Below, in pieces: positions 2,985-11,529 of a DNA stretch of 64,000 nucleotides. Position 1 is the stretch's first letter, and each line of letters starts with the position of its first letter. Under the pieces are notes generated by a model that was not told the origin of the DNA, ran no database searches, and saw only the letters and a list, made by a program, of their open reading frames with translations. The stretch is taken from NCBI GenBank assembly GCA_951406725.2, contig OX597823.1:40486001-40550000 (forward strand). Direction: 5' to 3'. The DNA is from Octopus vulgaris (Eukaryota). The position numbers and the translations under genes were made by a program.

Positions 2985-3190
2985 TCAGTGTTTGTCCCCC
3001 TAGCATTGCTTGACAACCGATGCTGGTGTGTTTATGTCCCCGTTACTTAGCGGTTCGGCAAAAGTGACCGATAGAATAAGTACTGGGCTTACAAAAGAAT
3101 AAGTCCCGGGGTTGCTCGATTAAAGGCGGTGCTCCAGCATGGCCGCAGTCAAATGACTGGAACAAGTAAAAGAGTAAAAGAGTAAAAGAG
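2985..3190 (+). mobile_element. SINE family A, 3' half
   Basis: Matches 10525-10720; ends in (gtaaaaga)n tail. Confidence 0.9.
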
Positions 3191-3191
3191 A

Positions 3192-3279
<88 letters not shown>

Positions 3280-9149: not shown

Positions 9150-9975
9150 GCTATGTGGTAAGAAGTTTACTTCCCAACTACACGATCCCGCCTTGGGCTT
9201 GTGTCTTCTACTATAACTTTCGACCGATCCTAGCCTTGTGACTGGATTTAACAGACGGAAACTGAAAGAAGCCCATCGTATATATATATATATATATGTA
9301 TGCGTGTGTGTGTGTGTTTGTACGTGCGTGTATGTGTGTGTGCGTGAGTGTGCGAGTGTGTGTATATATATATATATAGTCAGCAAAAAGGAACCTATAG
9401 AATAAGTACCAGGTTATTTACGTCTTGTTTGTTGTTATGACAACATTTCGGCTGATCTACTCTCCAGCCTTCATCAGGTGCTCTGGTGAAATTTCGAACC
9501 CACCCTTTTATTTGTTAGTAGCCCGCGCTCTTATCCACACGCTATATGCCCGTGGTATATAGCGTAGTGGATAAGAGCATGGGCTACTAACTTGCGGATT
9601 CCAAGTTCAAACCCAGGCAGGGACTTGAAAAATATCAACAGAAAAATAACATCAGCAACATACCTTAGGAATGAGAACAATGTGCCCCATTAATGAAATA
9701 AAGGGTTGCGTTCGAAATTCTACAAGAACATCTGATGAAGGCTGGAGAGTACATCAGCCGAAACGTTGTGATAACAACAAACAAGATGATGACCCTTATG
9801 TCCTTCCATTCTAAATAATGTACATAATTTCTCGTCTCAAAAATATAGAGTAGTAAGTACCAGGTTTATAAACAATAAGTACTTCTAGGCGGATTAAAAT
9901 TTCTTCTACGCGGTGCCCCAGCATGGCCGCAGTTTAATGACTGAAATAAACGAAAGATAAAAGATAAAAGATAAT
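9150..9975 (+). mobile_element. Degenerate SINE family A interrupted by the 9416-9853 insertion
   Basis: Head 9150-9280, microsatellite, tail split at taagtaccaggtt and resuming 9854-9975. Confidence 0.8.
9416..9853 (+). mobile_element. Fold-back non-autonomous element with tRNA-like head and hammerhead motif in each arm; 13-bp TSD
   Basis: TSD taagtaccaggtt at 9403-9415 and 9854-9866; 9423-9550 is an inverted, internally deleted copy of 9552-9787; A/B-box-like tagcgtagtgg and gttcaaaccc; CTGATGA-a-ggctg..cagcc-GAAA at 9732-9763 (+) and 9446-9477 (-). Confidence 0.85.
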
Positions 9976-10189: not shown

Positions 10190-10720
<531 letters not shown>

Positions 10721-11529
10721 TATAAAGAATATGAAATATATAATATATGCTTTTTTGATGGAGATATATATAAACGTCTTCCCATTTATAAACGTCTTGC
10801 CCTTTATTTTCAAACCTCAGACGAGGCTATTGAGTGATACATATGTGCTCAACCATGAGTGCATAGGATCTTATAGCAGAAACTGCTGTGAGTTAATGAA
10901 TTACATTACAAAATTTCTTATATCCTTGTCGTTTATTTAATTGTTTACTACGCTCTGTACTTGGCAATCGCTTTTTACTGAAGCATATATATATATTGTG
11001 TTCTAACATGAATTTATTAGTATCACTTTGCCTAATTGACATTTACATGTGTGTGTGTTTGCAGGTGTTCGTGTATGACAGAAAGAGGGGGAGGAAAAAT
11101 AGAGGGGGAGAAGGGAGTTGGAGAAATGGAGAGAGAGAGGAAGAGAAAAGAGGAGAGAAAGAATGAGACAAAGAATATTTATTTGGTTTGGTGTCATTAT
11201 TAAAGTTGCGCATTTAAAAATCATGTCTCACGTTTTGATTTACTTATATTTCTAAAATATTCAGATTTTATGCTTTATACATCAAACCGTTAATTTAAAT
11301 AATGTTTGAATATATTTCAGATTTTATGAAAACTGACGGTCCGATTCACAGAGCAATACCTGAATATTTACAAGTATAAACGCGAAATTATGAAAGAAAA
11401 CATTTTCTGTCTTCTATAGTGTTTGTAACTAAGTACTAACTTTTTGAATATATCTTCAAATATTTCTTTTAATGAGGAATTATAATAACGACAGTATTTC
11501 AATATATATTGCCAATTATTAAAACTGCA

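Follow-up and report, generated by a model that had tools for sequence, protein, structure and literature searches.

RNA polymerase III (Pol III) normally makes only short non-coding RNAs, its promoters are regarded as a sign of non-coding SINEs, and the octopus SINEs OR1 and OR2 are of tRNA-Arg origin. The octopus SINEs derived from tRNA (SINE2) include OR1, OR2 and OK (named among the references of PMC10886601); SINEs of this kind have a tRNA-Arg-like head, with the 5' end lying immediately before it. In the Schistosoma elements Sm-alpha and Sj-alpha, according to the portions of the literature cited, a tRNA-related Pol III promoter precedes a hammerhead ribozyme, the copy number is high, and the non-coding tandem repeats are processed by a canonical hammerhead (PMC6765202, PMC2770079). 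Metazoan non-LTR retrozymes are short hammerhead-bearing units related to the pseudo-LTRs (pLTRs) of Penelope-like elements (PLEs) and form tandem monomers that give circular RNA; the cited parts of the two reports leave a tRNA head unmentioned (PMC7229834; bioRxiv 10.64898/2026.07.22.740005), and the second report argues there that retrozymes are pLTR derivatives. PLEs of the Anolis PAc/Poseidon kind, as the cited passages present them, encode a single ORF that has an N-terminal domain, then a reverse transcriptase (RT) and, at its C-terminus, a GIY-YIG endonuclease (EN), and their pLTR overlaps the ORF start; a hammerhead cuts within the ORF, two RT starts define a 30–40-nt tail, and insertions comprise inverted copies, target site duplications (TSDs) and a palindrome at the pLTR start (PMC11167929, PMC8557442, PMC3846280, PMC2377424). 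More specifically, the same passages report TSDs of 8–10 bp next to an inverted copy with a one-sided tail (PMC8557442, PMC3846280), propose self-priming on an antisense template for head-to-head copies (PMC3846280), and describe how PAc cuts and extends both target strands, its two internal RT starts bounding the tail (PMC11167929).

The element that we describe here, from the genome of Octopus vulgaris, shares the structural features of these PAc/Poseidon elements. Unlike the PLEs in those accounts, the described promoters of which are Pol II-like, its pLTR opens with a tRNA-derived head carrying A and B boxes, and its sense strand is free of runs of four T residues (T4). With Sm-alpha and Sj-alpha it has in common a tRNA-related head followed by a hammerhead and a high copy number but, unlike in the cited descriptions of those repeats, the octopus unit belongs to a coding element, its minimal hammerhead does not define the ends, and its copies form inverted pairs with TSDs. 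It is not organized, as retrozymes and Sm-alpha are, in tandem monomers delimited by the cut of the hammerhead, a few short tandems notwithstanding. The SINE2 head with its A and B boxes and the 5' end just before it are present, but there is no LINE-derived or simple-repeat 3' tail, the body and 3' end being the start of a Penelope ORF; this distinction from OR1 and OR2 is one of architecture. What is unusual is the tRNA-Arg-like pLTR head, the start of most head-bearing arms at this head and the T4-free sense strand. Our literature search did not turn up any account of a coding Penelope with a tRNA head and without terminators; Repbase, Dfam and SINEBase lay outside this search, and the family may be deposited there. 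A supplementary file of PMC13282606 contained no matching sequence.

The copy that drew attention to the family lies in a window of 64,000 nt (the whole stretch of DNA analysed), for which a preliminary description had proposed a Pol III-promoted, SINE-like element using a ribozyme and Penelope machinery (Table 1). Between two perfect 13-bp repeats lie 438 bp that form two head-to-head arms. When this insert was deleted in silico, blast against homologous copies of the host repeat gave 90 hits, of which 54 crossed the site and had the motif only once; the repeats are therefore a true TSD, as had been proposed. The left arm was rightly described as inverted and joined head-to-head to the right one, and the roughly 100 bp said to be missing from it correspond to an internal deletion of 107 nt, to which a second one, of 21 nt, has to be added; this arm terminates at a tail-less site. 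The arms pair at 9423–9513/9696–9786 (88 %) and 9514–9538/9567–9591, and the GCCC/GGGC junction recurs in other copies, in both orientations. Several copies of common SINE-like repeats ending in microsatellites are found in the window at 1797–1924, 3060–3203, 9150–9400, 10190–10350 and 10600–10742, and include the host repeat of the insert.

Table 1 Features of the insert and its surroundings (positions within the window)
Feature	Position	Strand	Basis or remark
Older host repeat split by the insert	9380..9975	+	blast with the insert removed
Left TSD, 13 bp	9403..9415	+	last 2 nt could equally be left-arm sequence
Inverted pLTR arm	9416..9555	-	alignment to family consensus; 5' start ~4–6 nt upstream of head
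Second minimal hammerhead copy, C15.2 to T	9439..9480	-	sequence and fold
Head-to-head junction, short GCCC/GGGC palindrome straddling head start	9548..9555	.	direct reading
tRNA-Arg-like head	9554..9625	+	best of 10 tRNAs of the same genome is Arg-TCT, z 8.5
A box	9560–9570	+	direct reading
B box	9605–9613	+	direct reading
A-rich leader, nearly unstructured	9626..9670	+	MFE -1 kcal/mol; (AAT/AAC)n in subfamily B
First ~60 codons of Penelope ORF, ATG at 9671–9673	9671..9853	+	homologous N-terminal peptide in P0006
Type I minimal hammerhead within coding sequence	9729..9770	+	sequence and fold; predicted cut after 9767 (GUU)
Penelope tail, ~30 nt, in a single arm only	9820..9853	+	3'-end mapping; cited parts of PMC8557442, PMC11167929
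Right TSD	9854..9866	+	perfect direct repeat of 9403–9415

Direct reading and the folding of stem II (z -2.95 over 76 nt, -1.76 over 51 nt) bore out the two boxes and the hammerhead core with its palindromic ACGT (9732–9767), the minimal architecture of which matches that in PMC4209133. Among 10 tRNA sequences of the same genome, a subset of the isotypes, the runner-up to Arg-TCT as a match to the head was Arg-TCG (z 5.8). The acceptor stem of the head is unpaired, and no in-register cloverleaf was found in it; an Rfam scan of the site called neither a tRNA nor a hammerhead and gave only weak miRNA and snoRNA matches. Cofolding of two hammerheads yielded a duplex without an evident active dimer. 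The window copy carries a 2-nt insertion near 9800, inside the ORF start. Head and hammerhead occur together across the family, so that the insert is not a chance chimera and the joining of the two parts, suspected from this single copy, is a family trait.

To identify the family, we searched the genome (2.8 Gb, 227 contigs) with the right arm, which gave 4,046 candidates, 40 of which were scored; other copies are 81–87 % identical. In several of them the coding DNA directly upstream reads as a Penelope GIY-YIG C-terminus, and at 22 of 30 loci selected by the RT-EN linker the unit lies directly 3' of the endonuclease, at its GIY-YIG stop codon. In long copies the 3' end of the ~300-bp unit continues into the N-terminus of an ORF. 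The majority consensus (depth at least 23) has a period of 2,682 nt: head at 1–75, A-rich leader, ATG at 122, an open frame of 843 aa, stop, 29 nt and the next head. The RT piece has 41 % identity with a protein of 836 aa from Anolis that also matches the thumb and EN pieces and is likely to be that of the Poseidon element PAc; the RVT_1 profile matches with E=1.6e-8. The Pfam GIY-YIG profile did not match the frameshifted single-copy pieces, and the EN motif was identified by eye. Because the unit adjoins the EN, runs into the N-terminus of the ORF, belongs to a consensus with an 843-aa RT-EN frame and is linked to the Anolis matches, it is almost certainly the pLTR of an autonomous Penelope/Poseidon retrotransposon. 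The Penelope machinery suspected at the outset has thus been located, in an RT and GIY-YIG ORF that shares the 3' part of the unit.

By every structural feature tested the element belongs to the EN+ Penelope class: it has a single ORF with RT and C-terminal GIY-YIG, a pLTR present as a partial tandem that overlaps the ORF start, and in this pLTR a minimal type I hammerhead recognizable by sequence and fold. The hammerhead falls inside the Penelope coding sequence, and P0006, a full-length relative (57 %), encodes the same hammerhead-derived peptide. No zinc-finger motif was seen by eye in the RT-EN linker, which together with the sequence similarity would place the element in the Penelope/Poseidon clade. 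We set aside the possibility of an intron at the tail because the consensus frame reads open across the tail and throughout. Between the two subfamilies, A and B, which are ~94 % alike, there is an in-frame indel of 27 nt after the ATG; the commoner one, B, has canonical A and B boxes, and the B box of A, the subfamily of the window copy, is one base off tRNA. A supposed third subfamily (L228) came down to one old copy, with a best other match of 84 %. All A-type copies measured are at least 5 % from the consensus, and the family may therefore be extinct in this genome. When the Anolis protein was used to look for further Penelope families (54 of 12,592 candidates scored), all 30 loci fetched belonged to this same family; consequently there is no within-genome Penelope control. 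Near-identical inverted copies that share a flank or junction (L023/L027, at about 97.45 and 97.52 Mb of contig C10, and L383/L386) suggest local segmental duplications. In subfamily B we also noticed a second B-box-like sequence, GGTTCGAAA, just after the ATG (L144, L149, L158, L166–L168 and most of L343–L402), and the (AAT/AAC)n leader of this subfamily may be the source of long AAT repeats in octopus.

For the insertion anatomy we analysed 66 copies whose 3' end could be mapped, among them one duplicated pair. An inverted left arm is present in 46 of the 66; 35 of these 46 arms end at 265–278, without the tail, and the main arm ends at 297–305, so the inverted copy comes with the one-sided 30–40-nt tail of Penelope. 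TSD scores reach at least 7 in 33 copies (null 6.6 %) and at least 10 in 18 (null 0.5 %). The inverted arm, the one-sided ~30-nt tail and the TSD are ordinary, already known Penelope features. Copy ends map to the head and tail sites, away from the hammerhead cut near position 218 and, according to the part of PMC11167929 cited, hammerhead cleavage is dispensable for PAc in vitro; both points leave a need for the ribozyme in mobility without support.

The 5' ends of the copies are concentrated at the head. All 45 exact-tail matches were followed upstream, and 29 of them end within the unit. The other 16 of these tail-selected copies reach the head: 9 stop at it (P=5.5e-5) and 7 extend past it. 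In a head-selected set (63 arms at 60 places, from the top of the head-motif list), 44 arms end between -10 and +10 relative to the first position of the head, the edge lying at -7/-6. The remainder end inside the head (7), at -11 to -26 (6) or deep in the ORF (6), and two of the shorter arms are ORF-linked with small deletions. Exact 19-mers were counted 1,003 times just upstream of the head, 5,885 times in the head and 8,251 times in the hammerhead, a ~6-fold drop above the head; given match rates of 12, 9 and 11 among 37 spanning copies, these counts correspond to ~3,000, ~24,000 and ~28,000 arms, respectively. Counted by eye, ~26 of the 44 ends in the pile-up join sequence other than the mirrored head, which makes a fixed RNA 5' end likelier than snap-back alone. 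The ends lie 13–14 nt before the A box, and SINE transcripts likewise start 13–14 nt before theirs. Part of the pile-up could be hairpin-driven because 5' palindromes at pLTR starts are known, as the cited part of PMC3846280 describes. An RNA start at the head is thus quite likely, in our judgement; the pile-up locates this start and not the polymerase, as any type of promoter at the pLTR start would produce it.

The sense strand of the whole 2,682-nt consensus period, non-coding pLTR included, contains no TTTT. A mononucleotide shuffle gives a mean of 4.7 (P=0.006), a synonymous shuffle that keeps the codon usage of the element 2.8 (P=0.028), and a protein-preserving null with fourfold-site composition over 787 codons 4.6 (P=0.005); under the protein-preserving null, TTT runs number 12 against 21.5 expected (P=0.001). 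The consensuses of subfamilies A and B are both T4-free but are not independent tests, being ~94 % alike and, in the case of A, shallow (depth 2–20). As controls we used 36 other Penelope ORFs, each 1.2 kb or longer; the remaining 44 loci were too short, redundant or without the motif filter. These ORFs are enriched in T4 (313 vs 205 expected), and the T3 ratio of the octopus ORF is the lowest of the 37. Thirteen control ORFs of about 1.4 kb matched for T content predict 6.6 T4 for the octopus ORF, and 2 of the 13 have none. The 80 control Penelope stretches show an excess of T4 (583 vs 391) and a shortage of G4 (98 vs 157), and three of them lack T4; G4, depleted generally in Penelope ORFs, is also absent from the octopus element. 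The control pLTRs inspected are rich in T runs, and ORFs of four LINE clusters in the same genome (30 loci) have 1.7–5.3 T4 per kb. The T4 deficit is real but moderate. Two foreign Penelope ORF stretches are T4-free (L236:3001–4906, with a T-rich, headless pLTR, and L252:193–1611, the pLTR of which is not visible). The RVT_1 search of the octopus genome also brought up a young LINE family with many intact frames of ~949 aa (e.g., L339), 24 of the 30 fetched loci forming one cluster.

Because a tRNA-type promoter head is combined with the lack of TTTT in a 2.7-kb coding strand, the mRNA may well be Pol III-made, and from the sequence we give production of a coding RNA by Pol III about an even chance. 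The balance tips slightly towards reading the whole as a head-bearing pLTR pair of an autonomous Penelope, with the head serving the whole TTTT-free unit of 2.7 kb as its Pol III promoter. The head seems to act as promoter for the protein-coding element itself, a point missed in the preliminary description, and on the best reading a single RNA is the source of the full elements as well as of SINE-like solo ends in the tens of thousands. The RNA would begin ~6 nt upstream of the head, and Pol III would read through the ORF. By analogy with PAc, the protein of the element would cut both target strands, with RT starting at two internal sites ~30 nt apart; a start in the first pLTR would give a 300-nt SINE-like copy, a start in the second a long one, and two cDNAs could join head-to-head through the GCCC/GGGC palindrome. 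The uncapped RNA might, more speculatively, be translated through its A-rich leader; translated Pol III RNA has a precedent. The complete scenario, a coding Penelope that took over a tRNA promoter, purged its terminators, relies on cap-free translation and shed tens of thousands of SINE-like solo ends, is offered tentatively, as slightly less probable than not.

The alternative of an ordinary Penelope, transcribed by Pol II, whose pLTR start took up a tRNA or SINE head as a passenger or as part of a Pol II promoter, is possible though unlikely. The T-run scarcity would then reflect chance or some other constraint, for which the two T4-free matched control ORFs and a synonymous-shuffle P of only 0.028 leave room, and the pile-up would result from the usual pLTR start and the palindrome; but snap-back alone is insufficient for the ~26 ends that join non-mirrored sequence, even the non-coding part of the pLTR is free of T4, in contrast to the T-rich control pLTRs, the 5' ends keep the SINE-like distance from the A box, and both boxes are kept in both subfamilies. 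A capped RNA would solve the problem of translation, and known Penelope promoters look Pol II-type in the passages cited, with a LINE-like TATA-less internal promoter in Drosophila virilis Penelope (PMC2377424) and TATA/Inr-like motifs in Adineta (PMC3846280).

In an improbable two-tier arrangement, solo copies would produce short Pol III pLTR RNAs that spread in trans, in the manner of a SINE or retrozyme, and the ORF would be expressed otherwise. The Schistosoma Sm-alpha repeats, as covered by the cited part of PMC6765202, are a precedent, solo copies do carry the promoter and an RT start site, and head-starting arms are ~6–8-fold more numerous than EN-linked ones. However, internal initiation in the first pLTR of the full RNA itself predicts SINE-sized copies, and hence the solo excess, so that no second master is required, and the T4-free ORF would be left unexplained. 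In a tree of 28 solo and 27 EN-linked copies (8 of subfamily B) the two kinds are intermixed, with 15 label changes vs 18.7 after shuffling; the clustering of solo copies, which would favour two tiers, is weak (25 of 500 shuffles as low), solo copies do not form a clade of their own, and just one column in 264 differs between the two sets at P<0.02. A non-autonomous lineage apart from its Penelope partner was accordingly not seen among these 55 copies, a sample of limited power. Behind 50 of the 63 head arms a Penelope body follows within 420 nt, most others break off within the spacer of the family itself or just past it, and none of the 63 carries another body. The initial proposal of a stand-alone SINE class is therefore not supported, though a partial SINE tier may exist: the unit is a Penelope pLTR, its hammerhead lies inside the ORF, and solo and EN-linked copies intermix.

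That the head is an RNA-processing signal, cut by RNase P/Z in tandem read-through RNA, rather than a promoter is hardly credible: a fixed 5' end at the head is expected here too and 7 of the 63 arms start exactly at +1, but ends at -7 to -2 outnumber these, and the unpaired acceptor stem and missing in-register cloverleaf argue against such processing.

If the Pol III reading is true, the octopus element makes a natural Pol III messenger RNA, from a coding retrotransposon with a tRNA promoter and a terminator-free ORF; oligo-T has been taken as ruling out Pol III (PMC4494074). It would also be a direct intermediate between PLEs and ribozyme SINEs of the Sm-alpha type, and a possible route by which hammerhead SINEs and retrozymes are born from Penelope pLTRs. 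In this genome, SINE-looking repeats numbering in the tens of thousands are ends of Penelope, which annotation pipelines may misclassify.

Finally, metagenome Penelope loci were scanned for comparable heads. ARAGORN, run on 60 of 80 loci, many with short flanks, returned one tRNA-Leu, and a box pattern applied to all 80 gave two hits, ~500 nt upstream of truncated matches. The one of these hits that was inspected, a tRNA-like sequence on a metagenome contig (L246:2513–2580; Rfam tRNA, 38.6 bits), lies ~480 nt upstream of a truncated Penelope, with T runs between them, and is probably an unrelated SINE. Apart from these loci, L178:138–2854 contains seven tRNA-Cys-like genes within 3 kb, two of them with altered anticodons.
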